Shown here: positions 38 to 64,000 of the stretch, piece by piece | Numbering within the stretch: position 1 is the stretch's first letter | Layout of the letters: each line of letters starts with the position of its first letter | Source: an uncultured Planctomycetia bacterium | GTDB lineage: Bacteria > Omnitrophota > Gorgyraeia > 2-02-FULL-51-18 | Length of the DNA: 64,000 bases | Direction: 5' to 3' | Assembly (NCBI GenBank): GCA_964606485.1 | Contig: CAZSGP010000004.1 | Location: 230,376-294,375 of the forward strand | Notes under the pieces: generated by a model | What the model was told of the DNA's origin: nothing | Database searches by the model: none | What the model saw: the letters and a program-made list of their open reading frames with translations, nothing else | Program-made: the position numbers and the translations under genes

Positions 38-3000
38 ATGGGTAAACGTTTAGTGTTGAAAAAAGATATCGATCTCACCATCAACAAGCTCAATGAAATC
101 GGACGCGCCGCGGCTTCGGAATCAAGTCTTAAACGTTTCAGCGAAGGATTTGAAAAGCTCTCCCAGAAAAACAAACAAAAATTGGTTTTAGAAATTATTC
201 GTAAGATTCAGGAAAACAAGATGAGTGAGTACGTCGAGCTTAAGCTTGGAACCGATCTTGTTATGGGTATGGGCTTTGTGGTTAAGCAAGGCCGTGGTGA
301 AAGACTGAAGGTCTCCGATGCTCGCAAGGCCATTGCTAAAGATATTTTGAAAATGGAAGCCGCTTTGTACAAGGCCTTAACGATGCAGGACAAAACACTT
401 AATAAAGCGGTGGAACTGAATAAAGTCGCGCAAAGTATGCTGAAGAGTGTGGAGCAAATGGACATCTCTTCTATGGAGAAAGCTGCTAAAGAATTGTACA
501 AGATGCAAGATGGAATTAGCGAAAAGGATAAGAAAGAGTTGGATGAGCCAGATCCGACGGCGCCTGAGCAATGGTATAAAAAATATGAAAAAGCATTTTT
601 GGTTCAATACGTTCATCGAATTAAAGTTTTAAAAGAAAAAATCGATCAGGCTAAGGACTCCGATAAGACATCTCTTGAAGTGGAGCTGAGACAGCGCATT
701 CAAAAATTAAAAGTGACGCTACAGGAGTTTGAAGTCAAACAAAAATCCATTGAAGCGCTGGCTAAGTCGCCCAAATCGGCATGGATCAGTGCTTTGGGAA
801 CCGATAAGTTTAAAGCACTTGAAAAAGCGTATGCTGAGTTCCTCAAAGCAAAAGCGTCCGATAAAACTGAGAAGAGTCAAAAAATAAAAGAGACGAGAGC
901 GTGGGATGCGTTAGTTAAGGAGTTGTCCACACCTGATGCGAAGACCCAGAAATCTCTTACGGATTTTGCATCTGACATGGGTCTCATTGCAGATAAAGAC
1001 AAAGTAGACAGTGAGACCTTGGTCGAAATCTTTAAAATGATTGGTTCTATGCCTGACGAAGGCTTCCAGGAATTTTTAGCGCCAAATAAAAAATTAGCGC
1101 TCTACTACCAGAAAGAAGTAAACAAGCTTGAGACTGGCCTTAAGAAAGATTATGAGGCGAGTGAAGGCTTGGATATGCAGAAGCAATCTCCTGAACGTTT
1201 GAAAATTTTAGCGGAGAGAGTAAAGATCGCTTCAGAGAAAGGAAAAACCATGAGTTTTGCTGAAGCATGGGTTTACGCTAAAGAAATTTTTAAATACTCG
1301 ATTGTTGATCAAGACAAAGCCACTAAAGATTTCATTCATGGGCAGCATGATTACCGCGCCGAGCAAGAACTGATGATTCTAGGTCTTTTGGAAGGTCATA
1401 ACGTGGCCTTAGGAACCGGCGCAGGCAAAACCAATGTATTTTATATTTATCACATGATCCAGCGCTTTATACAGGGCGAGGCTTATCGCGGCAAACTCTT
1501 GGTGGAAAATGAGGACGCGATTCGAAATTATGCTGCCGAGGTCGTCGATGGAGTTACAACTGCCAATAACCGCGACACACAGATGACGATTTGGTATATG
1601 CAAAAAACTTCGGGCCTATATTTGTTCGATGGCCATAAATCCTTTTCCAACAAATCCGGCGACCGCTCAGACGTGATCGAGGCCCATAAAGATTCCAATA
1701 AACTCGTGATCATTAATTACATCAGCAACGTGCATTTGCTCAATGAAGCGGCCAAGGACGCTCAACGCGGAAAGCCGGAGCTGTGGAATGCTATGAAAGA
1801 GACGAATACGTATTCCCTCGACGAATTCCATAAATTCTTAAAGAGCAAAGAATCAGGAATGATCGCTGAAAATCTTCGCTCGGTGGATCTGCCACATGTG
1901 ATCAACGTGCTCAATGTGATCAATGCGATTGCGGATTTAAAAGCGGATGGCAGTTTTGGCGTGCGCAATGTTGTAAAAGAGTTCAAAGGGTCTAAAAAAT
2001 ACGAGGACTACGTCGCTGAGTCCAAGTCACGGCTCGGAAAAGATAAATCCGAAATTTTCTACAATCCGGAAACAACTGAGGTGTATTTGAGCGAGGCCAT
2101 GCGCCAAAACCTGGAAAAGAAGGGTTTTAGTTCCGGTATGGTGAGTTCAGTGGTTCGTGCCCTCATGGCCAAAGTAGGGTATCACTACTCCACGCATTTT
2201 GACGCCAAGACTAGCCAAGAGGTGATCGTGCCCGTTAGTCCTGAGGGGGGTAAGAGTGAAGAGTCTAGTTTCCAAGATACGAATTATCAAATTGCCTTAG
2301 CGCTGCGTGCATCCCGCGGGGATGTGATGTCGGCTCAGCGCATGGCACGTAAGAGCGATACGTCGATGTCGAGTGCCATTGCACAGAGTATTCGCATTAA
2401 TGCGCGTGCCAGCGTAGTGGGTGGTTCCGGCACACTGCAAGGGCTCGAAGGGTTGCAGAACTATCAAGTGGGTTCTCGTATTTTAAATATTTCCGGTTCT
2501 CGTCTGGATGAAGGCCGAGTAGCCAATGACCACATTTTTGAGGGAGCCGAAGGCGAGAAAAAGATTCTCGAAAAAATTAATAAATCTTTAACGGACGGTA
2601 TCAGTGTTTTGGTGGCAGTTAGCGCTAAAGAATTTAAAACCTTTGAAAAATATAAAAATGGAAAAAATGATTTATTTAACGGTTATGACGTAGTCACTCT
2701 CGACAAAGATACCACCGAAAAAGAACTCGATAATATTATTAAAGATCCGTGGGCTAAGGGTCCGGGAGGCGTTAGAAAGCCACGCGTGATTTTAATTTCC
2801 GAAAGAGGATGGACGGGACGCGATTACAAACAACTCGAAAAAGCGGCCGATAAACTAACCGACGAAGCTATTACGAAGCAATCTTTGCACCAGGTTGTGA
2901 TTGGCGCTCAAGATATAGCCGCGTCTGACTTTATCCAGCTGCTCGGTCGTGTGGGCCGTAACAATTCGGAGCTTACCGCAGAAAGATTTTTCCAGGTAAA

Positions 3001-6000
3001 CGGTGAGGCACTTTCCGACCGTCTCTCAAACTTAAAAAATGATCAGGTTCGCAACGATTTCCGAAATAAACTGATCATGCGCTATGCCGAAAGCCCGGGT
3101 GAAGTTGGCGAAGTGCTTAAACTTTTGAATGCATACGAAAAGGCTGAGGGAGATATCAGTAAATTAAGCCCTTCAGAAGCCCTTCGTTTAAATGCTCACT
3201 TTATCGAAATGGATGTGAACATATCCGAAGGTGCGCGTTATTCCATTCGCGACAATGCGCGTAACGAAATTGAAATTAAACCGATCCGAGATTCTTTATT
3301 CGAATTGGGCGAAGGGACGGTAGGTTACGAGCGCGCGTCCCTTGCCCAGCAGAAATTATTCGACAGCCACAGTGATTCGGCGGATCTTGAGATGAAACAG
3401 CGTGAGTTCGGAACCGGCGAAGAAATGGCTCTAGGCACGGTGCGTCAGTCGGTGAGAAATGCGCGCGTGCAATGGGAAGGCATCTTCTCTTTTAGAAAAA
3501 CCGGCGAAACAACCTGGCAGGCGATTCGTTCGGGAAGCATGTGGAATGGTGTTAAATTTGTATTGCGCTCGTTCTCTCCGCTTCGCCCACTCCACATTCG
3601 GAGCAACATGAAATTTTTATTCATTGCGGCGCGGACGGTCACTCAACTGCGGGCTAAGGAAGCAGAGCTGCTTCCCGGAAATAGCGAAACAATCGTCGCC
3701 AAACATAGGCTTGCGCGTTTTAACGGGACGTCCGCAGCTTCACTGCGAAAATTAAATTCCAATAGTGTTTCTGATATCGTTGATAATTTGGTTGAAAGTT
3801 CGCTCGCGTTGGCGGAGCGCGATATCATCAAATCGCACCAGAATTCCAATCCATTTAAAGGTGAAATCCGTAATGCCACCGTCCATATCCGCATGGAAGC
3901 CCGCGGCCGACAGGCGAAAGAAGAAGTAGTCAACGACCAGACCGTGAAAGCGGAAGTCGTTAGCCGCACCGGCGAAGGATTTTTCATGAAATTCGACAAG
4001 TTTAACAAAATTGAAAATCTCGGCGCTGGCTGGCAGCTCATGGTGATTCCACAAGCGAGTGGAGTGCCATTGATTCAGCTTTTTAACCCGAATGATACCG
4101 AAGCCACGCCAGTTTATATGACGTTCGGTGACGACGAAACGATGAAAGCGCTTTTTGCGGGATTAACGAGTATCAGTAAAGGCAGCGTCAATATCAGCAA
4201 CGAAATCACGACGATATCTTTTGCACCGGTCAATAACGAATTTCACAACAAAACGACACTTCACCAAATTTTCCGCCAAACGGGTTTTGGTTCAAATGCC
4301 CAAGCGGGAATTGGTATTGTCGGAGCGGCGCTGGGTTTAAAAAATTTGGATCACCGCAGTGAAAATATTTCCGTCGAACAATTGGCGGCTCAAATGAACA
4401 ACGCTAAAGACGGAACGCTCGTTGCCCCTAGCGACGTGATTTCCCGTGTGGTTGACGCGATCAGTCTCGCGCATAAGCTGACGCGCTCAGTTCAGGATGA
4501 CAGGTCTTTCATTACGCTTACTGAAAAAGAGAAAGCAATGTCGCTTAATCCTGTGGTTGCGCAAAATCTTGCGGTATTGGCAAGCCATAATTTTAATTTT
4601 GCGGGTCTTGGGAATTTAGGGGAGGTGGCACTGGCTCTCAAGTTTGTGGACCCTTCACTTCAGCCAGCGGATCAGATGACAACCCTACAAAATCTAAGAG
4701 CGGCAAGAATGATATCCGACAGCACCTATTCTTATTTGAATTTGGTTTATCAGAATAATCCCTTAGATGCTCGTTCCAAAATTGATGAGTCGATTCATCA
4801 AAGTGTCGAATTTGCCCGGGTGAACGCAGAAATTAATCAATTTAACCGCAAGGAACAAAAGACCGTTCAGGTTGCAACAACTGAAAACGACAAGGCATCC
4901 AAAGCATTAAAAGAAAAACAAAAATTACTTGGTTCGAGGAATGCCTATCGTGCGGCCGGCTTATTGGTAGGCCTTGTCGGCAAGGTAAACCAAGACCGCG
5001 CCATGGATTATCTGTCCGGAGACGTCGATGCAAGCGTGGTGCCGGACAACGCGCGTGGCCGCGAGGGTCAAGTTTTTGCCGTCAATCCATGGATGAGAGA
5101 CGACATAAAGAAGTATGAAGTGGCGCCTGTGAGTATCCCCACTCAAAACACATGGGCGCGCTCAATCAAAAATGGACTTATCCGAGCCGCCAAAGGTCTG
5201 TTTGCTGCGGCTATTCTCAACCGGTCTGGGCTTCTGAGCTTTATTGAGAAACTAAGGGCACCAGGCGAGTTTGTGGCGGATTGGCTAAATAGCTTTAATG
5301 ACCGCTGGACGGTTTCAGGAGTTTCAACTTCACAGCAGATCGCAAGACAAGGATTATACAAATCCGTCGATAAGGCATTTATGAAATCACATGGTGGCAG
5401 CCAAGTAGCAAACGTTCTTGCCAAAGCACTGGTCAAGGCGGACGAAAATAGTGAGCTTAAACAAGGAACATTGCGCTACTACTATGGAGAAGACGCAAAG
5501 TCCGGCTATGCCAATGGCGGAGCGGTGGGCGCGGTGCGAAAAATTCTGGATGAAGAAGATAAATCTCAGTTTAAACCGGACCTCATGGAGGCTAGAGACA
5601 CTGACTTGGCGTTGGTCTCGATGTCATACCCCGAAATCGGAACTAGAAAGAATCTAGATCGTTTGATCGCGAGCGCTAAAGCCCTAAACACTCAGATCAA
5701 AGACCTTGCGTTCATAGACAATAAAAATTTAAATGACAGCGCCGCCGCATTTGCGGTTGATAATGACTTAACGCTGTCTGAGCTCAGCAAGCTTCAGAAG
5801 CTTCTGTCTCAAAAAGACAAGATTAAAAATTTAGAAGATCTTCAACGGGCTTTGGCTCAAGCAGATTTACTGGGCGACCGCTTCTTAGGTCTTTCACTCA
5901 TGATGCTTGGCGCCTTTTCTAAGGAGGATCTAACAAATTTCCGTAAAACCGCCTTACCACACGAAAAAGATGGTATTGAAGGCCGACCGCTGGATGAGCT

Positions 6001-9000
6001 AGAAAAAGTTGGAAAGCGCATTCGCATGAAATTTAGTCTTCAAGCGGAAAACGACCAAAACCTAGCGCTGAATATGAATTTAAAACAAGCGGTGGAAGAG
6101 GCGGTCAAAGAACCTTTTGATGAAGTAAAAGCCAAGGTTGATGCTCTCGTTCTAAAAGCAAAATCATCCGCGCCGCAGGAGGCGATTACGATTCTTCAAA
6201 AAGCCCTTTCTGAAAGAGCGGGCGATAGGCTTCTAGCCAATAGTACGGATCTTAAGACGCTTCTCAGTCAGGCTTATCTGCAATTGGCTGCTACCCAAAC
6301 GGGAATTGAGAAAGCGCGTAGCTTGGAAAAAGCATTTCAGTACGACCAAAGCCAAACCCCACTTAAAAATCAAATTGCCGATCTTTACATCGATGCTGCC
6401 AAGGCTTTGTCGAGCGACCGTTCCCCACAAGCGTTGATTCGCTTGTATCACTACTTGCGCATTGCCAATGGTTATGACCGCAGAACAGGTGACGGTGCTA
6501 TGGCAAATGCAAAGAAAGATGCAATTACCGCTGAGAAAGCTCTCTTAGAGGATGTGGAAATCCTGAGGTCTCAAAATAAAATTGTAGAATCTCTCGCACA
6601 GCTTTTACCTCTTATCGTCGAGATCGATGGTCTTCAAAGCCAGAACCGCGAGCTAGTTGAAATTTTTGCCAAAATATTTGACGTTTATCATTCGCCTTCC
6701 ATCGAGGAAATCGTTAAAGAAGCGCAGTTGCCTAGCGACAAAGATGCAATGGATCGTTACAAAACAAGACTGCTAACGCTCTACTATAATCTTTACGGTC
6801 AGGGTCTTAGCGAAAACGAGCTAGATGCAGAAAATCTAAAAGCTAAAAATGGTTACAAACCCGATCCCAACAAACGACTGGAGCGTTATAAAGCGGTAGT
6901 GAGTGCGGCTCGCGACACCGACGAACAATTTTTTGAAGATGGGTCCTCCGAAATTGAAGCGATGATGAACCAAAAGACAAAGCCTTCGTTTACGGCCACA
7001 TCCTTGAGTTTATCTAAGGAAGATGCCCAAAGAATAAAATATGCCCGCACACTTGTTTCGAAGGCGGTTGATCAACTTTTGGCGGAAACAAATAAAGGGG
7101 TCCCGCCCAAACAGCAGATTCAAATGGATATCAAAGACCGCTCGCATATTATTGCAGCCGTGGCCCAAAATATTGCGCAAGGATCGGTGCGCTTAACGGA
7201 ATCGCAACCCGGCTTAGAATCTTTTAAAGAAATGCAGGACGTCTCGATTGTGAAGAGGACATTGAGCCAGGATTTTAAAGACTACATCCATATTCTTAAA
7301 TCTAAAGAAGGTGTCGAACCTGAGTCCGATAAATTAAAAGAAGCACGTTCCATTGAGAAAAAAGTGAAAGACAAATTCAAAGAATGGGCCGTTGCGGCAG
7401 GAATTGATCCGGCGACGCTACGGGATTTCAAAGTGCAGTTTGCCAAAAAGAGTGTTCTGAAAGGTACTACAAAACTTAAGAATTCGGATGGCGCTTATCT
7501 CGAAGGCGTGGGTGTTTTAGTTATCCCGACTGACGAAGACGGCCGCGTAGAGAATCTATCTGCGGGGCTCATTGCACATGAAGGATTGCATGCAACCGCG
7601 TTTGACTTCGCACAACACGATATGCGCGAAAGCATTGTCACCTACGTTGCGTCCGTTATTGCTGCAGAGTTGGGTGATTCTTACGGGTCGATCAAACAGA
7701 TGCGTTATTACGACCGTGCGCAAACCACACTTCAAAAATGGTTTGCGGCTTCCGGAATGTCCCGTGAAAAATATGCGGCTAAACTTTTCAAGGCCTCTGT
7801 CACCGGTAGCTTTGATGAGCTTGGAATTTATGGTATCCAGGAAATCTACGAGAGATTAAAAGCGCGCGGTGTTGAATTTGTCACTATTGAAGGAAAGCGT
7901 GTTCGTTTGTCTAGCGTGCAAAAAGCATTTAAGGGAGAAAATTTTGATAAACCAGACACTTTGCCGGTATTCGTACGGCTTGGCGAAAGGGATGGTGGCT
8001 ATGAGTTGTTGCCGACTCCTGGGGAGACAACCTTAAACGGACGTCTTAGAGAGCTCGCTTCAAAGGCAGACCGCGCAGTAGATGTTTTAGAAACGGAAAG
8101 AGCGCAAACGCGCATCTTTATTTCAAAAGTATTTCCACATTTTATTGAAAACTATCGTGAGGGGCGTGCCACTGCGCACGACGAACAAAAAGTACTTCAT
8201 CTAGCCTATAAGATTAGTGAAGAGCTAGGCCGGCGTATTGCCAGGCTCTTAGAGCTTAAGGATAGGGTCGGAACATCAGAAAATGAATCCAAGGTGACAG
8301 ACGTATTAATTTCACTGAACGATCAATACTTGGCACCACTGGGCCTTCATGCGAACGCCGAATTTGAAGGTAATACGGGCTTGTTCTTCTTTAACGGTTT
8401 TGAGATTTCGAAAGTCATTGAAGGTGAGCGAGAAAACGAAGCGGCTCCGACCTTTATCGTGACAGATTTAGATATCACCGAAAACCGTAGCCGCAACAAC
8501 GCCGTGAATCGCGAAGAAGAGCGCTCGGTGACGATCTACCGCAATAGCGTTGCTCGTTGGGTTGATAACGAGTTCTACGCAACCTCTAGCGGCGAAAAAG
8601 CTGAAGTGTTGGCGGTGCTGGGTGCGGATCTTGCGGCCTTTAAAGAAGGGCGTCCGGGGACAAAATTTGGCTTAACCGATACTGGTAGAATTCAAATTAA
8701 TGATTTATACCGCACAAGTGATGAGTTTCCGCACGTTGCTAAAATTATTCAAGAATTCAATCAGGACCTTTGGCAGAACCCGATTTACGCTGGCACACGG
8801 CGCGTAGAAAATCCGGAATCAATTATCACCGATCCTGAATTACGCAATAGCGTGGTTTCAAAATTGGGCGAGCTACTGGAAAAATCAATGCGCCAAAGCA
8901 GCGCAGAAAAGAAAATTTTCAGTCAAAGTCCAGCTACCGCCAAAGACAAGACCATCATCGACATTTTACGCTACGGGGCGGAGGTAGATTTACGCGTGCA

Positions 9001-10561
9001 CGAACTTCGTCATAAACTTGATTCACGGTATTTGGTTCAGGGTAAAGGCAAACGCAGCCAGGTCTATACCACTTTGGAAGAGCGTGAATATGTTGCTCAT
9101 TTAGAAGAGTTTGCCAATCCCGAAATGCGCGATGCTTTGGCATTTGCAATTATCAAGCTGTATGCATTGGTTGAGAAGGGTACGTCCGGCCTTGGGTACA
9201 CCAAGACAGGTGCTAAGATTTTCAAAGATTTAGTCGGGTCCAATTACCGTTTACTGATGCAAAACAATAAGGAAGAGCTTCTTTCGACGCTAGAGAAGAT
9301 CGGAAAAATTTCTCCGAAGGATTTACAACTTTTAGCGATGAAGTTGCAAATGAGTGACGACCGAAAGAAAGAAAATGAATCGCACGGCGATAAAGAAATC
9401 ACAAAGCTTGCCTCAGAGCGATACGAACGCGAATTGGTTGATCTTGAAAAGAAAGCGGCAGGCGGATCGGGTTCTGGTGGGCAAGACGAATCAGTGCCAG
9501 CGCCGTTTGTGGTGCGACAATTAAATAGCGGCGTTACCCCTGTCGGCAATTTACCGGTCGACGACAAGACAAAGACCGCCGCCCGCCTCGCTACCTCACC
9601 ACTACCTTCGCCAATGGGTGCAAGATTCGCCATTGCGCCAGAGTCATTAGATCTAAACCAAGACATCGATGTGATTTTCCCCGACATGCTCAAGGCCAAT
9701 GGCGTTGAAACAAACAACGATAACGGAAAACGTTTGGTGGCGGCACTTGTTGAAATTCGCGGATTGCTCAACGAAGAAATCGATCCGCTTGTTCCATCCA
9801 AATTTGACGAAGAATTAGCGGCCCAGAAAAAATTGGCTGATGAAGCCTTGAACCTCATGGCTCCGGCTATGGCCTCTGCGATCTCCGGTGCGCTGGAAGC
9901 TTATGTGAACGCCAAAGCCATCACACGCGTGATGGAAGCAAACGGGACCGTTCGCGCGGCGGCTAAAGTGTTGCCGGCCAAAGCATTCATAACTGACAAA
10001 GGTTTCGATGCCGTAGCTGCGCAAACCATTCATATGATTGCGGGACGCGAATCAACCGGCGGGAAAAATAATTTAGCAGATACGCTGGTTCTTTATGCGG
10101 ATAAAAATGCTCCCATTGAACCGATTAAACAAGCCCTAACCGAAGTGGGGTTAGGCTGGGTGAAACTCGAAGCCGTCGACATGAGTGGAAATGTGATGGA
10201 ACAGCTGAGCACGCGCATTCCACAGATTAAAGAAAGTGCGAACATTATATTTAACGAAAGCGACAGCGCTGGTTTCATGGATGCCATTACGAACAGCGCA
10301 GACGGGGTTAAGTTTGTGGCCACTCCTCAGTCTGTCAATGCGAAGCTGAATGCTGGCTCTCAGCTCGTGCTGGCCTTCCTTGCCAAAAAGAAACTGACCG
10401 GACTCCGTGTCCCGGGGCAGGCCTCGCTTTACCAGAACGCAGCTCTAGAGAAGCTCCTTGGCAATGCCTCGCTTGCCGAATGGTTCAACGTGCCTCTTGA
10501 AATCTTCAAACTCGTCGCCCAAGCCATGGCCTCCCGCCTGGCAACCGCCAAATCCGCCTAA
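38..10561 (+). CDS. Giant multidomain protein, at least 3507 aa and probably 5'-truncated at the window edge (frame is open from nt 2, no RBS or signal peptide at the first ATG). Contains an SF2 helicase/ATPase-like motif set and an HExxH motif.
   Basis: Uninterrupted 10.5-kb ORF in the provided track. I read Walker A-like GTGAGKT at 1412-1432, DEFH (motif II-like) at 1820-1831, ISERGWTGRD (motif V-like) at 2795-2824, QLLGRVGRN (motif VI-like) at 2936-2962 and HEGLH at 7577-7591. Stop TAA at 10559-10561 is followed by a hairpin. Confidence 0.8.
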   Translation: MGKRLVLKKDIDLTINKLNEIGRAAASESSLKRFSEGFEKLSQKNKQKLVLEIIRKIQENKMSEYVELKLGTDLVMGMGFVVKQGRGERLKVSDARKAIAKDILKMEAALYKALTMQDKTLNKAVELNKVAQSMLKSVEQMDISSMEKAAKELYKMQDGISEKDKKELDEPDPTAPEQWYKKYEKAFLVQYVHRIKVLKEKIDQAKDSDKTSLEVELRQRIQKLKVTLQEFEVKQKSIEALAKSPKSAWISALGTDKFKALEKAYAEFLKAKASDKTEKSQKIKETRAWDALVKELSTPDAKTQKSLTDFASDMGLIADKDKVDSETLVEIFKMIGSMPDEGFQEFLAPNKKLALYYQKEVNKLETGLKKDYEASEGLDMQKQSPERLKILAERVKIASEKGKTMSFAEAWVYAKEIFKYSIVDQDKATKDFIHGQHDYRAEQELMILGLLEGHNVALGTGAGKTNVFYIYHMIQRFIQGEAYRGKLLVENEDAIRNYAAEVVDGVTTANNRDTQMTIWYMQKTSGLYLFDGHKSFSNKSGDRSDVIEAHKDSNKLVIINYISNVHLLNEAAKDAQRGKPELWNAMKETNTYSLDEFHKFLKSKESGMIAENLRSVDLPHVINVLNVINAIADLKADGSFGVRNVVKEFKGSKKYEDYVAESKSRLGKDKSEIFYNPETTEVYLSEAMRQNLEKKGFSSGMVSSVVRALMAKVGYHYSTHFDAKTSQEVIVPVSPEGGKSEESSFQDTNYQIALALRASRGDVMSAQRMARKSDTSMSSAIAQSIRINARASVVGGSGTLQGLEGLQNYQVGSRILNISGSRLDEGRVANDHIFEGAEGEKKILEKINKSLTDGISVLVAVSAKEFKTFEKYKNGKNDLFNGYDVVTLDKDTTEKELDNIIKDPWAKGPGGVRKPRVILISERGWTGRDYKQLEKAADKLTDEAITKQSLHQVVIGAQDIAASDFIQLLGRVGRNNSELTAERFFQVNGEALSDRLSNLKNDQVRNDFRNKLIMRYAESPGEVGEVLKLLNAYEKAEGDISKLSPSEALRLNAHFIEMDVNISEGARYSIRDNARNEIEIKPIRDSLFELGEGTVGYERASLAQQKLFDSHSDSADLEMKQREFGTGEEMALGTVRQSVRNARVQWEGIFSFRKTGETTWQAIRSGSMWNGVKFVLRSFSPLRPLHIRSNMKFLFIAARTVTQLRAKEAELLPGNSETIVAKHRLARFNGTSAASLRKLNSNSVSDIVDNLVESSLALAERDIIKSHQNSNPFKGEIRNATVHIRMEARGRQAKEEVVNDQTVKAEVVSRTGEGFFMKFDKFNKIENLGAGWQLMVIPQASGVPLIQLFNPNDTEATPVYMTFGDDETMKALFAGLTSISKGSVNISNEITTISFAPVNNEFHNKTTLHQIFRQTGFGSNAQAGIGIVGAALGLKNLDHRSENISVEQLAAQMNNAKDGTLVAPSDVISRVVDAISLAHKLTRSVQDDRSFITLTEKEKAMSLNPVVAQNLAVLASHNFNFAGLGNLGEVALALKFVDPSLQPADQMTTLQNLRAARMISDSTYSYLNLVYQNNPLDARSKIDESIHQSVEFARVNAEINQFNRKEQKTVQVATTENDKASKALKEKQKLLGSRNAYRAAGLLVGLVGKVNQDRAMDYLSGDVDASVVPDNARGREGQVFAVNPWMRDDIKKYEVAPVSIPTQNTWARSIKNGLIRAAKGLFAAAILNRSGLLSFIEKLRAPGEFVADWLNSFNDRWTVSGVSTSQQIARQGLYKSVDKAFMKSHGGSQVANVLAKALVKADENSELKQGTLRYYYGEDAKSGYANGGAVGAVRKILDEEDKSQFKPDLMEARDTDLALVSMSYPEIGTRKNLDRLIASAKALNTQIKDLAFIDNKNLNDSAAAFAVDNDLTLSELSKLQKLLSQKDKIKNLEDLQRALAQADLLGDRFLGLSLMMLGAFSKEDLTNFRKTALPHEKDGIEGRPLDELEKVGKRIRMKFSLQAENDQNLALNMNLKQAVEEAVKEPFDEVKAKVDALVLKAKSSAPQEAITILQKALSERAGDRLLANSTDLKTLLSQAYLQLAATQTGIEKARSLEKAFQYDQSQTPLKNQIADLYIDAAKALSSDRSPQALIRLYHYLRIANGYDRRTGDGAMANAKKDAITAEKALLEDVEILRSQNKIVESLAQLLPLIVEIDGLQSQNRELVEIFAKIFDVYHSPSIEEIVKEAQLPSDKDAMDRYKTRLLTLYYNLYGQGLSENELDAENLKAKNGYKPDPNKRLERYKAVVSAARDTDEQFFEDGSSEIEAMMNQKTKPSFTATSLSLSKEDAQRIKYARTLVSKAVDQLLAETNKGVPPKQQIQMDIKDRSHIIAAVAQNIAQGSVRLTESQPGLESFKEMQDVSIVKRTLSQDFKDYIHILKSKEGVEPESDKLKEARSIEKKVKDKFKEWAVAAGIDPATLRDFKVQFAKKSVLKGTTKLKNSDGAYLEGVGVLVIPTDEDGRVENLSAGLIAHEGLHATAFDFAQHDMRESIVTYVASVIAAELGDSYGSIKQMRYYDRAQTTLQKWFAASGMSREKYAAKLFKASVTGSFDELGIYGIQEIYERLKARGVEFVTIEGKRVRLSSVQKAFKGENFDKPDTLPVFVRLGERDGGYELLPTPGETTLNGRLRELASKADRAVDVLETERAQTRIFISKVFPHFIENYREGRATAHDEQKVLHLAYKISEELGRRIARLLELKDRVGTSENESKVTDVLISLNDQYLAPLGLHANAEFEGNTGLFFFNGFEISKVIEGERENEAAPTFIVTDLDITENRSRNNAVNREEERSVTIYRNSVARWVDNEFYATSSGEKAEVLAVLGADLAAFKEGRPGTKFGLTDTGRIQINDLYRTSDEFPHVAKIIQEFNQDLWQNPIYAGTRRVENPESIITDPELRNSVVSKLGELLEKSMRQSSAEKKIFSQSPATAKDKTIIDILRYGAEVDLRVHELRHKLDSRYLVQGKGKRSQVYTTLEEREYVAHLEEFANPEMRDALAFAIIKLYALVEKGTSGLGYTKTGAKIFKDLVGSNYRLLMQNNKEELLSTLEKIGKISPKDLQLLAMKLQMSDDRKKENESHGDKEITKLASERYERELVDLEKKAAGGSGSGGQDESVPAPFVVRQLNSGVTPVGNLPVDDKTKTAARLATSPLPSPMGARFAIAPESLDLNQDIDVIFPDMLKANGVETNNDNGKRLVAALVEIRGLLNEEIDPLVPSKFDEELAAQKKLADEALNLMAPAMASAISGALEAYVNAKAITRVMEANGTVRAAAKVLPAKAFITDKGFDAVAAQTIHMIAGRESTGGKNNLADTLVLYADKNAPIEPIKQALTEVGLGWVKLEAVDMSGNVMEQLSTRIPQIKESANIIFNESDSAGFMDAITNSADGVKFVATPQSVNAKLNAGSQLVLAFLAKKKLTGLRVPGQASLYQNAALEKLLGNASLAEWFNVPLEIFKLVAQAMASRLATAKSA
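1412..2962 (+). other. SF2 (DEAD/DExH- or SecA-like) ATPase core motif set inside giant ORF1
   Basis: Order and wording of motifs I (ALGTGAGKT), II (DEFH), V (SERGWTGRD) and VI (QLLGRVGRN) match SF2 helicase conserved motifs. The ~330-aa spacing between motifs II and V implies a large insertion. Confidence 0.45.
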
Positions 10562-59965: not shown

Positions 59966-60009
59966 TTAATTAATATTAATCAATAATAAGCACTAAAGAT
60001 GGTGCCAGA

Positions 60010-60031
60010 GGGGCCGGACCCCTCCGGCCCC
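60010..60031 (+). promoter_or_regulatory. 9-bp GC hairpin in the 5' leader of the acyl-CoA dehydrogenase gene
   Basis: ggggccgga cccc tccggcccc. No U-tract follows. GGAGGAG SD at 60037-60043 and ATG at 60050. Confidence 0.3.
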
Positions 60032-60049
60032 GTAGCGGAGGAGTAAATT

Positions 60050-61885
60050 ATGGAACTGCTCAAGGGTAAAGAGAACGCCGAGAAAGCCAAATCGCTGGAT
60101 GTTGCCGAGTCGGCACGCGAAGTCAACTGGACTTATCCTAGTTTCGTGGGAGATCTTTTTACCGGCCGTGTGCGCTGGGATCTCATTTTTCCGTTTCCTG
60201 CCCAATCCGCTGAAGACAAAAAAATTGGCGATGAATTTTTGGTGCGCCTTGAAAATTTTTTAAAAGAAAACGTCGATGCCAATGCCATCGATCGTGAAGG
60301 ACTGATTCCTGATAGCGTCATGAAGGGCCTTGCCGAACTCGGCTGTTTCGGTTTAAAAATCCCCAAAGAGTACGGCGGGCTTGGACTCTCGCAGGTCAAT
60401 TACAACCGTGCGGTTGCGATGGTGGCCAGTCACTGCGGTTCGACGGCTGTGCTTTTGTCCGCGCATCAAAGCATCGGCGTGCCGCAGCCGCTTAAAATGT
60501 TAGGTACCCCCGAACAAAAGAAAAAGTATTTGCCGCTATTTGCCAAAGGAGCTATTTCCGCATTTGCACTCACTGAGCCGGAAGCCGGGTCTGACCCCGC
60601 GAAAATGGTGACGACGGCTACCCCGATTGAAAACGGCGATTTCTATCTCATTAACGGCGAAAAACTCTGGTGCACCAACGGTAATATTGCCGACGTGCTC
60701 GTTGTGATGGCCAAAACCCCTCCGATCATCGTGAAGGGAAAAGAAAAACAGCAAATCACAGCGTTTATTGTCGAAAAAAATATGCCCGGATTTGAAGTGG
60801 CGCACCGCTGCCATTTTATGGGCTTAAAAGGAATTCAAAATGGACTTCTGCGATTTAAAAATGTGAAAGTGCCGAAAGAAAATATTATTGTCGGACCGGG
60901 ACAAGGGTTGAAACTAGCGCTCGCAACACTCAACACGGGCCGTCTCACCGTGCCGGCGGCGTGTTCGGCGATGGCTAAAAAATCACTCGAAGTCGTGCGC
61001 AACTGGGGCAACAAGCGCGTGCAGTGGGGCCAGCCGGTGGGGTACCACGAATCGGTGACGTCGAAAATTTCTCTCATGACCGCGAACACGTTTGCCATGG
61101 AAGCGGTGACGTGGTTGTCGTCGGGACTAGTCGACCAAGCAAAAGTGGATATTCGTTTGGAAGCGGCTATGGCTAAACTTTTCTGCACCGAAATGTCCTG
61201 GCAGGTCGCCGACGACTGCATGCAAGTGCGCGGTGGTCGTGGGTATGAAACCGCAGATTCCTTGAAGGGACGCGGAGAAGAACCAATTCCGGCTGAGCGC
61301 TACATGCGCGACTGCCGCATCAATCGAATCATTGAAGGAACAAGCGAAATCATGCGGCTTTTTATTGCGCGCGAAGCGATGGATCCGCATTTACGCAGAA
61401 TTTTTGGACTGATGAAGGGAAAAGGAATATTCAAAACAGTGTTTCACTATGCCGGATGGCTGCCGCGGCAAATGGTTTACATTGAGCACTGGAGAGGCTA
61501 CGCTAAAAATTGCGGCTCGCTTGCTCGTCATCTTTCATTCATTGAGTCCACGAGCCACAAGTTGGCGCGCGATTTATTCTTCGCGATGGCCGTTCACCAA
61601 CAGCGTTTAGAAAAACGTCAGAATATTTTAAACCGCTACGTCAACATCGGAACCGATTTGTTTGCCATGGCGGCCGCGTGCTCGTACGCGTCGAATTTGC
61701 TCGCTCAAAATCCTGCCGACAAAACGCCGCAGGAATTAGCGGACTTATTTTGCCGTGAAGCCCGCTTGCGAATTAAACACGAGTTCAAAGCGCAGTGTGA
61801 AAATGATGATGCCATGATTTATAAAATCGGGCGCAATATGTTGGACGGAAAATACACGTGGCTCGAAAATGGAATCGTTAAATAA
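60050..61885 (+). CDS. Acyl-CoA dehydrogenase family protein with C-terminal extension (611 aa)
   Basis: ACAD motifs TEPEAGSDPAKM, WCTNG, QVRGGRGYE, IIEGTSEIMRL. About 200 extra C-terminal residues, as in long ACADs. Confidence 0.85.
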   Translation: MELLKGKENAEKAKSLDVAESAREVNWTYPSFVGDLFTGRVRWDLIFPFPAQSAEDKKIGDEFLVRLENFLKENVDANAIDREGLIPDSVMKGLAELGCFGLKIPKEYGGLGLSQVNYNRAVAMVASHCGSTAVLLSAHQSIGVPQPLKMLGTPEQKKKYLPLFAKGAISAFALTEPEAGSDPAKMVTTATPIENGDFYLINGEKLWCTNGNIADVLVVMAKTPPIIVKGKEKQQITAFIVEKNMPGFEVAHRCHFMGLKGIQNGLLRFKNVKVPKENIIVGPGQGLKLALATLNTGRLTVPAACSAMAKKSLEVVRNWGNKRVQWGQPVGYHESVTSKISLMTANTFAMEAVTWLSSGLVDQAKVDIRLEAAMAKLFCTEMSWQVADDCMQVRGGRGYETADSLKGRGEEPIPAERYMRDCRINRIIEGTSEIMRLFIAREAMDPHLRRIFGLMKGKGIFKTVFHYAGWLPRQMVYIEHWRGYAKNCGSLARHLSFIESTSHKLARDLFFAMAVHQQRLEKRQNILNRYVNIGTDLFAMAAACSYASNLLAQNPADKTPQELADLFCREARLRIKHEFKAQCENDDAMIYKIGRNMLDGKYTWLENGIVK

Positions 61886-62609
61886 AAAAATTCTCATCAT
61901 CGACGATAATCCGGAATACGTTGAACTTCTCCGGTCCATTCTTTCTTCGCGCGGATACGAAGTAAAAGACGCGCACGACGGTTTGGACGGCCTCGAGAAA
62001 CTCAAAAAATACACACCGGATCTCATCATCCTCGACATCAACATGCCGCGCATGGATGGAATGGAGTTTTACAAAAGAATCCGCACGCGTTTCGGTAGAA
62101 CCAAGTACCCGGTGCTTGTGTCGACGGCACGTCAGGAACTCGGCGAAATGTTTAAAGAAATTTCAGCCGACGGATTTTTACCCAAGCCTTTTAAAATCGA
62201 AGAGCTGCTCAATGAAGTAGGCTTGATCATTCGCGGCGACCGGAATCCGCTCGTGTGTCTACTCGCCATGCCGTCTCATCCAAAAGTGCAGGAGCTTCAA
62301 AAAATGTTTCTGCAGGAGCGCTACCGCGTGTCAATCATCGAAGATACCAGTCTCTTAAAAGAAAAATTAAAAAATCACATTCCTCAAATCATTGTCATGG
62401 AGTTTGTTCAAAAATCCATGGATGCGGTCGAAATGATTCAAGAGTTGCGAAAAGGTCCGCCACTGTCGCTGGTGCCTATTGTGGTCTACTCCCATTCGGG
62501 GTTTCCAGGACTCCGAGAAAAAGCGCTCACCGCGGGCGCCGACACTTTTGTCGAAAACCCATCTAACTTTGGAGAATTTTTTCACGCGATTAATCTTATC
62601 GCCAAGTAA
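61869..62609 (+). CDS. CheY-like response regulator with receiver plus degenerate pseudo-receiver domain, no recognisable output domain
   Basis: REC1: ILIIDDNPE...DLIILDINMPRMDG...VLVSTAR...LPKPF. REC2 has Glu in place of the acceptor Asp (QIIVMEF) and lacks the DD pair. 17-nt overlap with the upstream ACAD gene. Confidence 0.8.
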   Translation: MESLNKKILIIDDNPEYVELLRSILSSRGYEVKDAHDGLDGLEKLKKYTPDLIILDINMPRMDGMEFYKRIRTRFGRTKYPVLVSTARQELGEMFKEISADGFLPKPFKIEELLNEVGLIIRGDRNPLVCLLAMPSHPKVQELQKMFLQERYRVSIIEDTSLLKEKLKNHIPQIIVMEFVQKSMDAVEMIQELRKGPPLSLVPIVVYSHSGFPGLREKALTAGADTFVENPSNFGEFFHAINLIAK

Positions 62610-62620
62610 AGCGATAGTCT

Positions 62621-62657
62621 GTCATTGCGAGGAGGCCGCAGCCGACGAAGCAATCTC
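62621..62657. repeat. Left inverted repeat flanking the GIY-YIG gene
   Basis: gtcattgcgag-(15 nt)-gaagcaatctc. Its 11-nt ends equal the ends of the reverse complement of 62976-63003. Confidence 0.5.
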
Positions 62658-62676
62658 GGTTTTATGGGCAGGATAA

Positions 62677-62964
62677 ATGAGTAAAAATTATTACGTTTAC
62701 ATGATAACCAATAAATCTAATACGGTTATCTATGCAGGGGTCTCTAGCGATCTAAAGAAGCGAGTGTACGAGCATAAGTCGAAGCTCGTGAAAGGATTTA
62801 CGAGTAAGTATCATGTGGAAAAATTAGTCTGGTATGAAACGTGTGACGACTCCTACCAAGCCATCACTCGGGAAAGGCAGATTAAGGCGGGGTCAAGGCA
62901 GAAGAAGATCGCCTTGATCGAATCCTTTAATCCGACCTGGGAAGATTTGTATGAGAAGATCTAA
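62677..62964 (+). CDS. Small GIY-YIG nuclease-domain protein (UPF0213/COG2827-like, 95 aa)
   Basis: YYVYMITNKSNTVIYAGVSSDLKKRVYEHKS carries the GIY...YIG catalytic-core signature. Conserved R and E follow (RERQIK). Confidence 0.8.
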   Translation: MSKNYYVYMITNKSNTVIYAGVSSDLKKRVYEHKSKLVKGFTSKYHVEKLVWYETCDDSYQAITRERQIKAGSRQKKIALIESFNPTWEDLYEKI

Positions 62965-62975
62965 CACTTTAGAAC

Positions 62976-63003
62976 GAGATTGCTTCGCTTCGCTCGCAAT
63001 GAC
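62976..63003. repeat. Right inverted repeat flanking the GIY-YIG gene
   Basis: gagattgcttc-gcttcg-ctcgcaatgac. Its reverse complement gtcattgcgag...gaagcaatctc matches both ends of the left repeat, 22 of 22 terminal nt. Confidence 0.5.
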
Positions 63004-63011
63004 GGGTATGT

Positions 63012-64000
63012 ATGAACCCTAAAAAACAGCTCGCATTTTTGGCATTTGTTGTTTTGTGCGGCGTGAGCCTTTCGTTCTGGCTTTTTTTCTCAATCACTCA
63101 AAAAGAAAAAAAAATTATTTCATCTGATTTTCAAACGGACGCGCAATCGCAAAGCGCGGCGTTGCGCTTGGCTGCAGAACATGAGTTAAACGACGATGTT
63201 TTAAAAAAAGGAAATTTCGCGCCCTGGGTTCAGAGCGCGCTGATTGATTTCCCGGACTCGGAACTTGATTTTTATTTCTATGACCAAATCCGCTCCGAGG
63301 GCGAGTCGCTTTTGTTGGTGCATCACGGCGCGGGGCAGGGACCGGGCCAAGGGACTCTGACACCCGAGGAAATTGGGAAAAGATCGATGATGAACACGCA
63401 TTCCACGCTCCCGTTTGGAAAGCGGCAGATTTCCGTAACGCTTTACCCATCATCTGATTTTTTTAAAAGTCGTCAACCGAGACTTGGCTGGATGGCACTC
63501 GGAACAGGAATTTTCCTCACCCTTTTAATGGCCTTGTATTTATTTGGAATGATCCGCACGCTCGAGCAAACCGTGAAAGCGCATCAAGCGCTCAAGGAAG
63601 CGCAGAGCAAGTTGATCCTCGCAGATCGTCTTGCGACACTCGGTCAAATTTCCGCCGGTGTTGCGCATGAGATGAATAGCCCCCTGGGATTTGTGGGTAA
63701 CAATTTGGAGACGCTGGAAAAATATGTGAACGATTTAGTCGTAGGGGCGAATAAAGAAAAAATCCTCTCCGACATGAAACCACTAATCTCCGAATCCCGC
63801 GATGGTCTTGATCGTGTCAAAAAAATTGTGGCCAATCTCCGCACATTTGCGCGCGCCGACGCCAAGGAATCCGTCGAGACCGTTGACTTGCACCGGGTGC
63901 TCGAAGGCGCGCTCTCCATTGCCTGGAATGAAATTAAATTTAAAGCCGAAGTGGTGCGGGAGTTTCATTTGCAATCCCACGTGCGCGTGCACACTCAGCA
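63012..64000 (+). CDS. Sensor histidine kinase, 3'-partial (runs off the window); not in the provided ORF track because no stop is reached
   Basis: ATG at 63012. TM helix LAFLAFVVLCGVSLSFWLFF. Second TM WMALGTGIFLTLLMALYLFGMI. HisKA H-box LADRLATLGQISAGVAHEMNSPLGFVGNNLE. The frame is open to nt 64000. Confidence 0.75.
   Translation, partial: MNPKKQLAFLAFVVLCGVSLSFWLFFSITQKEKKIISSDFQTDAQSQSAALRLAAEHELNDDVLKKGNFAPWVQSALIDFPDSELDFYFYDQIRSEGESLLLVHHGAGQGPGQGTLTPEEIGKRSMMNTHSTLPFGKRQISVTLYPSSDFFKSRQPRLGWMALGTGIFLTLLMALYLFGMIRTLEQTVKAHQALKEAQSKLILADRLATLGQISAGVAHEMNSPLGFVGNNLETLEKYVNDLVVGANKEKILSDMKPLISESRDGLDRVKKIVANLRTFARADAKESVETVDLHRVLEGALSIAWNEIKFKAEVVREFHLQSHVRVHTQ

Follow-up and report, generated by a model that had tools for sequence, protein, structure and literature searches.

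The ssn cassette and the protein that it encodes

In the window analysed in this study (the whole stretch of 64,000 nucleotides from contig CAZSGP010000004.1 of an uncultured bacterium), a small open reading frame (ORF) for a GIY-YIG nuclease is bracketed by inverted repeats and lies between the genes of a response regulator and a histidine kinase. This arrangement had been noticed in a preliminary description of the DNA and was confirmed here by the sequence itself and with a repeat finder. The gene, referred to as ssn (62677-62964, + strand), encodes a 95-aa single-domain protein and is preceded by a ribosome-binding site (AGGA, 5-8 nt before the ATG). The flanking elements are hairpin repeats of the Ssn-related motif (SRM) type. 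In the orientation in which they would be recognised, the left one (62621-62658) is read on the + strand and the right one (62975-63003) on the - strand. Together, the two repeats and the gene constitute a cassette of 383 bp (62621-63003).

Hairpin repeats flank the genes of the Ssn family, a group of GIY-YIG proteins with a single domain and about 94 aa that corresponds to CDD cd10448 (Chenal et al., Nat Commun 2025, PMC11893778). The repeat of Neisseria, NTS, has the sequence CGTCATTCCCGCGMAVGCGGGAATCYRG, and SRM is the name of the general repeat class (PMC11893778). SsnA binds its repeat only as single-stranded DNA (ssDNA) and cuts a few nucleotides upstream of it, without acting on double-stranded DNA (dsDNA), on RNA or on the reverse strand; cutting depends on the three bases that precede the palindrome and binding on the C that follows it, and cleavage is abolished by the substitutions Y6A, Y17A and E64A (PMC11893778). 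Binding of the repeat exclusively as a single strand, with a cut 5' of the repeat, was reported for Ssn enzymes of both Neisseria and Wolbachia (PMC11893778). In N. meningitidis, SsnA lowers transformation by NTS-containing DNA, and restriction of motif-bearing ssDNA during transformation is the only role demonstrated for the family (PMC11893778). At least one SRM was found near 71% of the homologue genes, with SRMs on both sides in 42% (PMC11893778). SsnA-associated repeats were also used as a benchmark class in a 2026 preprint.

The only domain recognised in the window protein is GIY-YIG (Pfam PF01541, residues 4-77, E 2e-16), and its AlphaFold model is likewise a single compact GIY-YIG domain (predicted local distance difference test, pLDDT, 92.7). 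In size and in having no accessory domain, the protein thus agrees with the Ssn family. A tblastn search of the N. gonorrhoeae chromosome NZ_CP119140.1 hit a single place (E 1e-19), where an ORF of 94 aa with Y6, Y17 and E64 lies amid canonical NTS repeats. The window protein is 45% identical to this gonococcal SsnA orthologue over 89 gapless residues (BLASTP, E 5e-29), and its residues Y8, Y19 and E66 align with the catalytic positions Y6, Y17 and E64. Across 36 homologues, Y19 and E66 are invariant and Y8 is nearly so, and all 16 invariant columns of this set are retained by the window protein. From this homology we infer that the enzyme is probably active in the manner of SsnA. Owing to the large size of the family, no named Neisseria entries were present among the best 120 matches of the protein search. 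It is worth adding that two gonococcal chromosomes (NZ_CP119140.1 and NZ_CP119142.1, 2.17 Mb each) are filed in the plasmid collection, with one match to the window protein in each.

The nearest solved folds identified with Foldseek were UPF0213 BH0048, Slx1 and the N-terminal domain of UvrC. At the sequence level, the PDB gave no match at E <=0.01, and the copy searched contains no Ssn structure. BH0048 of B. halodurans (PDB 1ZG2; Foldseek E 8e-5, 26% identity) is, like the window protein, a stand-alone domain of about 95 aa, but proteins of this UPF0213/YhbQ type form a separate subfamily, and we know of no report associating them with flanking hairpin repeats. NCBIfam holds no specific model for the family, and on some Sphingobium plasmids (AP027312.1 and related) the label given to Ssn homologues is "excinuclease ABC subunit C".

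The GIY-YIG fold is shared with homing endonucleases, and a sub-threshold match to NCBIfam TIGR01453 (group I intron endonuclease; 22.5 bits against a cut-off of 56) was obtained. Both observations would suit a classical free-standing homing endonuclease resembling I-TevI, which would cut a dsDNA target and spread by recombinational repair, the repeats being incidental. Such an identity is extremely unlikely: the protein has 95 aa with neither a linker nor a DNA-binding domain, a search of 50,697 phage records gave only 2 weak matches, gene and repeats are conserved together (see below), and SsnA is inactive on dsDNA (PMC11893778).

Structure and recurrence of the flanking repeats

The inverted repeat comprises two perfect blocks, an outer one of 11 nt (62621-62631 / 62993-63003; GTCATTGCGAG) and an inner one of 13 nt (62646-62658 / 62975-62987; CGAAGCAATCTCG), with a variable core between them that measures 14 nt in the left repeat and 5 nt in the right one. 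Two exact shared ends, both of 11 nt, had been described previously; this length holds for the outer block, while the inner one is two bases longer. The left repeat can be divided into a GTC tag, a 5-bp stem (ATTGC/GCAAT), a GA/GAA internal loop, the variable core GGAGGCCGCAGCCGAC and a C after the stem. The right repeat, read on the - strand, is GTCATTGCGAG CGAAGC GAAGCAATCTCG. Each 11-mer alone is not rare (1.4-1.7 matches expected per window with <=1 mismatch). A copy of GAAGCAATCTC at position 1180 lies inside a coding region and was judged to be a chance match.

Close homologues of the window protein, 55-72% identical to it, number in the hundreds. When one genome per species was scanned, 593 relatives were obtained among the first 600 pattern matches, and the best 80 loci were analysed. 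These span WOR-3, Cyanobacteria, Saccharibacteria, Chloroflexota, Atribacterota, Omnitrophota, Bacillota, Nitrospirota, Planctomycetota, Bacteroidota and several proteobacterial classes. Nearly all homologue loci share a common flank design, with GTCATTGCGAG...GAAGCAATCTC upstream of the gene and its reverse complement downstream. In an independent search, in which each arm was sought alone (<=3 mismatches, within 200 nt, in the expected orientation), upstream units were found at 46 of 79 loci, downstream units at 51 of 79 and units on both sides at 42 of 80, while control stretches situated 1.2-1.4 kb away gave 6 matches in about 276 tests. Over both search definitions, a reverse-oriented downstream unit was present at 51-61 and an upstream unit at 45-46 of the 80 loci. 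When the repeat was defined independently of its class (GTC, 5-bp stem, C), a unit was located <=150 nt away at 69 of the 80 loci, against a background of about 0.06 per 150-nt strand, and the paired arrangement around ssn is therefore not due to chance. The repeats noted in the window thus form a discrete, recurrent unit that flanks GIY-YIG genes elsewhere too, and on this point the preliminary description stands.

The spacing is conserved as well. The distance from the upstream unit to the ATG has a median of 20.5 nt (21 in the window) and that from the stop codon to the downstream unit a median of 13 nt (13 in the window); the stop codon is contiguous with the downstream unit or overlapped by it at 15 loci. 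Outside the units, the sole conserved feature of the flanks is a pyrimidine at -1, which is consistent with the published HGTC tag and with cleavage within flanks that are not conserved. In the protein database, most contigs that carry a homologue measure only about 1 kb. A Logan contig (L001), which is an independent assembly of the same organism and corresponds to window positions 60002-63002, breaks at the right repeat. These breaks suggest that the repeats commonly fragment assemblies.

Covariation of the stem was tested with only the non-stem anchors fixed (GTCA..GA and GA(A)..TC), the nearest 3' arm being taken regardless of complementarity. All four free stem positions were paired in 94 of the 107 units next to homologues, and at least 10 stem sequences were represented (TTGC/GCAA 61, TTCT/AGAA 15, TCCT/AGGA 6, TCCC/GGGA 4, and others). 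The pairs were G-C (65) and C-G (33) at stem position 7, and C-G (72) and T-A (27) at position 8. Across the whole window the same anchors gave 11 matches, fully paired only in the two units flanking ssn. These anchor-based tests were used instead of a generic search for GTC, a 5-bp stem and C, which yields about 25 chance matches in the window. The inner cores, which were not constrained by the search, fold better than shuffled sequences (mean z -1.7, Wilcoxon p 3e-8).

The repeat classes differ in further details. The internal loop of the ATTGC class is of 2x3 type (GA/GAA) and that of all other classes is GA/GA, which allows tandem G.A pairs; the register differs by 1 nt between classes. 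One cassette may also mix stem classes (e.g. ATTCT/AGAAT upstream and ATCCT/AGGAT downstream), each unit being internally compensated (L018, L028, L073-L075).

Three features link the locus to the Ssn family: the single GIY-YIG domain, the homology to SsnA with counterparts of Y6, Y17 and E64, and the oriented hairpin repeats on both sides, with the tag before the palindrome and the C after it. The locus is thus very probably a member of the Ssn-SRM module, in which the flanking repeats serve as the recognition hairpins of the enzyme. Several observations weigh against this assignment. The published SRM string, HGTCWYN(0-2)YYVSBRHN(0-5)WNVSBRGN(0-2)RNCYNB (PMC11893778), fits neither unit of the window, and of the 80 related loci just 2 match it; applied to the 3.3 kb surrounding gonococcal ssnA, the expression detects 9 NTS units. 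The two units of the window are thermodynamically weak hairpins when folded as ssDNA (z about 0). No repeat copies besides the two flanking units were found in the window, where the search for dispersed copies covered 64 kb, about 50 kb of it being two giant ORFs; the role in Neisseria relies on hundreds of copies per genome. Within the family, numerous dispersed copies in the host genome are common but not obligatory. Finally, the reference used for comparison was the gonococcal SsnA orthologue and not the meningococcal protein that had been assayed.

Because the string is a search aid derived from 29 genomes and not a definition, the ATTGC/GCAAT repeat is read here as a variant of the Ssn/SRM system, and the mismatch is not taken to exclude it from that system. 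The weak folding of the window units as ssDNA makes it more likely that the conserved structure is read by the protein than that it is thermodynamically driven. Near-canonical NTS units flank a Burkholderiaceae homologue (L061, 51% identical to the window protein), and these units fit the published string. A literature search with the repeat sequence of the window returned unrelated primers only.

The regulator-kinase operon and the origin of the cassette

The cassette fills nearly all of a 402-nt gap between the response-regulator gene (61869-62609, + strand; 246 aa, two receiver domains) and the gene of the HisKA histidine kinase (63012-64000, + strand), which starts with an ATG at 63012 and runs past the window end. 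It is separated from the regulator stop codon by 11 nt (62610-62620) and from the kinase ATG by 8 nt (63004-63011). The 11-nt spacer is the predicted cleavage region on the + strand, a few nucleotides 5' of the YGTC tag, and the 8-nt spacer is its predicted counterpart on the - strand. The neighbouring genes are tightly packed: the start of the response regulator overlaps the preceding acyl-CoA dehydrogenase gene by 17 nt, and an ENA contig (L087), 100% identical to window positions 62514-64000, reveals a full kinase of 435 aa that is overlapped by 4 nt by a second response regulator. The GC content over ssn (0.42-0.44) dips slightly in comparison with its surroundings (0.46-0.50), which is not decisive.

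Beyond the window, L087 contains the rest of the kinase gene, the second regulator and then an IS200-like Y1_Tnp gene (222 aa, 2456-3127, - strand; Pfam E 6e-8) situated about 1.5 kb past the window end, around which no SRM-type repeats were found. Within the window, about 50 of the 64 kb are taken up by two giant ORFs (38-10561, + strand, 3,507 aa, and 10831-50634, + strand, 13,267 aa, the latter starting with TTG). Such large genes are uncommon and may point to the lineage of the host.

Since no promoter-like or terminator-like site, including a T-tract terminator, was found within the cassette, ssn is probably cotranscribed with the operon, and the kinase would be expressed by read-through. 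This would be compatible with the repeats acting mainly in the transcript, where RNA hairpins or a long-range stem could stabilise, terminate or insulate the ssn message, the target of the nuclease being unrelated to them. In the predicted RNA fold of positions 62600-63030 the left and right repeats do pair, more stably than in shuffled sequences (z -3.3), and RNA structure could also explain the covariation of the stems. A long-range stem between the repeats had been envisaged in the preliminary description and indeed appears in this fold, but any inverted repeat yields such a stem, and the structure that is conserved is the local hairpin of each repeat. Moreover, the conserved features (the 5' YGTC tag and the C after the stem) are strand-specific and are located on opposite strands at the two ends, and the downstream copy in the mRNA is therefore the complement, without the tag. 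An Rfam scan of positions 62000-63600 (E up to 10) gave only chance matches of small nucleolar RNA type, there is no T-tract terminator, and solo or oppositely oriented copies occur in intergenic arrays whatever the direction of transcription. SsnA itself bound no RNA in vitro (PMC11893778). A function chiefly at the RNA level is, on balance, very unlikely, and recognition of the repeats by the nuclease is preferred.

How the cassette came to lie in this operon is a separate question. The preliminary description had proposed a small mobile cassette that split a two-component operon, which is plausible. The almost exact fit of the cassette into the gap between genes that otherwise overlap, and the unrelated contexts of its relatives, agree indirectly with that proposal; the lack of an empty site, of a target-site duplication and of further repeats in the window, together with the presence of mostly one copy per replicon, do not. 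In its strongest form, such a cassette would be an autonomous mobile element, in which the nuclease serves as its own transposase or homing enzyme, cuts both ends in ssDNA and moves itself as well as solo repeats, the insertion into the operon being a recent jump.

Several features speak for an element of this kind. Its layout, with inverted terminal hairpins around one nuclease gene and predicted cuts outside both ends, is that of an insertion sequence (IS) or a REPtron (see below), and the unit is compact, with conserved spacing. Homologues that are 55-70% identical occur amid unrelated neighbours in WOR-3, Cyanobacteria, Saccharibacteria, Chloroflexota, Atribacterota, Omnitrophota, Bacillota and Proteobacteria. 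Many assemblies break at ssn loci, as the Logan contig does at window position 63002, and two Planktothrix plasmids with a common repeat array differ in whether ssn lies inside it.

In the first of these plasmids, NZ_LR882964.1 of Planktothrix agardhii (L085, 2190-3060), an ssn homologue has an MmeI-type restriction-modification gene on one side and the DISARM gene drmA on the other. The accompanying array is composed of alternating repeat types (ATTCT forward and ATCCT reverse) with truncated tandem copies, and is reminiscent of bacterial interspersed mosaic elements (BIMEs). At the homologous site of the second (plasmid3 of NIES-204, L086), the array is kept, but two small ORFs are found instead of ssn. 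This difference is equally well explained by deletion between direct repeats.

No empty site was found either for the window locus or for copies on Rhizobium plasmids. The comparison with orthologous loci lacking the insert, by which the preliminary description had hoped to define that site, therefore yielded none. When the response regulator was used as a guide, its best non-self homologues were <=49% identical and lay in other contexts, and an exact-pattern scan of metagenome contigs gave no junction of regulator stop and kinase start without the cassette. In Rhizobium, the corresponding locus of CIAT894 is disturbed by an IS4 element and altered synteny, and the gene is present in all the R. 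tumorigenes and R. rhododendri relatives. On an R. tumorigenes plasmid (L089, 2915-3860), about 950 nt between an ssn homologue and htpG are about 90% identical to stretches on other replicons of the same species, and probably represent another repeated or mobile element.

Other observations point in the same direction. Target-site duplications were lacking, direct repeats at the boundaries of 43 cassettes being at chance level, and the 37 copies in 33 records of the plasmid collection indicate that the gene is usually single-copy, like a domesticated RAYT (REP-associated tyrosine transposase; REP, repetitive extragenic palindrome). The cassettes thus differ from a classical IS or miniature inverted-repeat transposable element, in which terminal inverted repeats go with target-site duplication and multiple copies per genome. 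Both independent assemblies of the organism carry the cassette, with 100% identity, and the family is nearly absent from phages. To our knowledge, GIY-YIG enzymes are hydrolytic nucleases without strand-transfer chemistry, and movement would therefore need host repair.

An autonomous element is thus possible, though rather unlikely. The more specific proposal that the 383-bp unit is self-mobilising and represents a new mechanistic class, in which a hydrolytic GIY-YIG ssDNA nuclease makes hairpin-guided nicks on opposite strands, host replication or repair completes the movement, and the insertion into the operon is fresh, is unlikely. Acquisition of the repeat-ssn-repeat unit as one piece is likely, and self-mobilisation by the nuclease is a less likely possibility.

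Comparison with related systems and significance

The closest counterpart of the cassette is the Ssn/SRM system itself. Like the NTS units around SsnA, the window repeats are oriented; their tag on the 5' side is (Y)GTC, their outer stem is A-T-rich (GTCATT...AATC), and the palindrome is followed by a C. They differ in the stem ATTGC/GCAAT, the GA/GAA internal loop and the longer variable core. There is one unit on each side of ssn, in strictly inverted orientation, whereas the gonococcal locus contains mixed arrays, and the 64 kb of the window are free of dispersed repeat copies. The hosts are also dissimilar, namely an uncultured bacterium with giant genes and, in the case of Neisseria, a naturally competent pathogen.

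The IS-like layout NTS-ssnA-NTS, its domestication and the analogy with REP/RAYT were put forward by the authors of the Ssn study as a hypothesis only (PMC11893778). With REPtrons (a RAYT gene flanked by REP or REPIN hairpins), the window cassette shares a single-copy nuclease gene, inverted copies of a short tagged hairpin read as ssDNA, the possibility of BIME-like alternating arrays (seen in the Planktothrix plasmid) and the absence of target-site duplication. It differs from them in its enzyme (GIY-YIG instead of the Y1/HUH type of RAYTs) and in its tag (GTC instead of the GTAG or CGTC of REPs). Identity with a REPtron was rejected, as the encoded protein is GIY-YIG and not Y1_Tnp, and because the enzyme does not belong to the HUH/Y1 type, no covalent tyrosyl-DNA intermediate would be expected. 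Elements of the IS200/IS605 group likewise have subterminal hairpins that are read in ssDNA, cleavage offset from the hairpin, no classical terminal inverted repeats and no duplications. In contrast to the window cassette, with its hairpins on opposite strands and its GIY-YIG enzyme, both of their hairpins are on the same strand and the transposase is of the Y1/HUH type.

By analogy with SsnA, the following course of events can be proposed. When the locus becomes single-stranded (e.g. during replication, DNA uptake or repair), the protein would recognise the + strand of the left unit and the - strand of the right one, and would nick these opposite strands immediately beyond the cassette ends, in the spacers of 11 and 8 nt. 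In the cell, the likely effect would be the processing or restriction of motif-bearing ssDNA, and hence an influence on recombination, as in the transformation of N. meningitidis. The repeat-gene-repeat unit most probably entered the operon of regulator, kinase and second regulator horizontally and as one piece. Cut sites, biological role and insertion history are all, in this proposal, extrapolated from the characterised members of the family and from the layout of the locus.

The cassette belongs to a family described in 2025 and is not a new kind of element. What is new here is an SRM class that is missed by the published string, quantitative data on covariation and spacing, and an example located inside a two-component operon. 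This matters little for discovery and somewhat for annotation, in which such loci should be labelled as an Ssn nuclease with SRM repeats and not as "GIY-YIG nuclease family protein" or "excinuclease ABC subunit C". ATTGC/GCAAT and related classes dominate a large clade across candidate phyla, Cyanobacteria, Chloroflexota and other groups. As the published string misses these classes, the existing statistics on SRM association and the genome-wide counts are likely to be underestimates. Each pair of enzyme and repeat is a candidate reagent with a different ssDNA specificity, and the compact, conserved geometry of the cassette, together with its placement in an operon, provides a concrete case for asking whether Ssn modules move as units.

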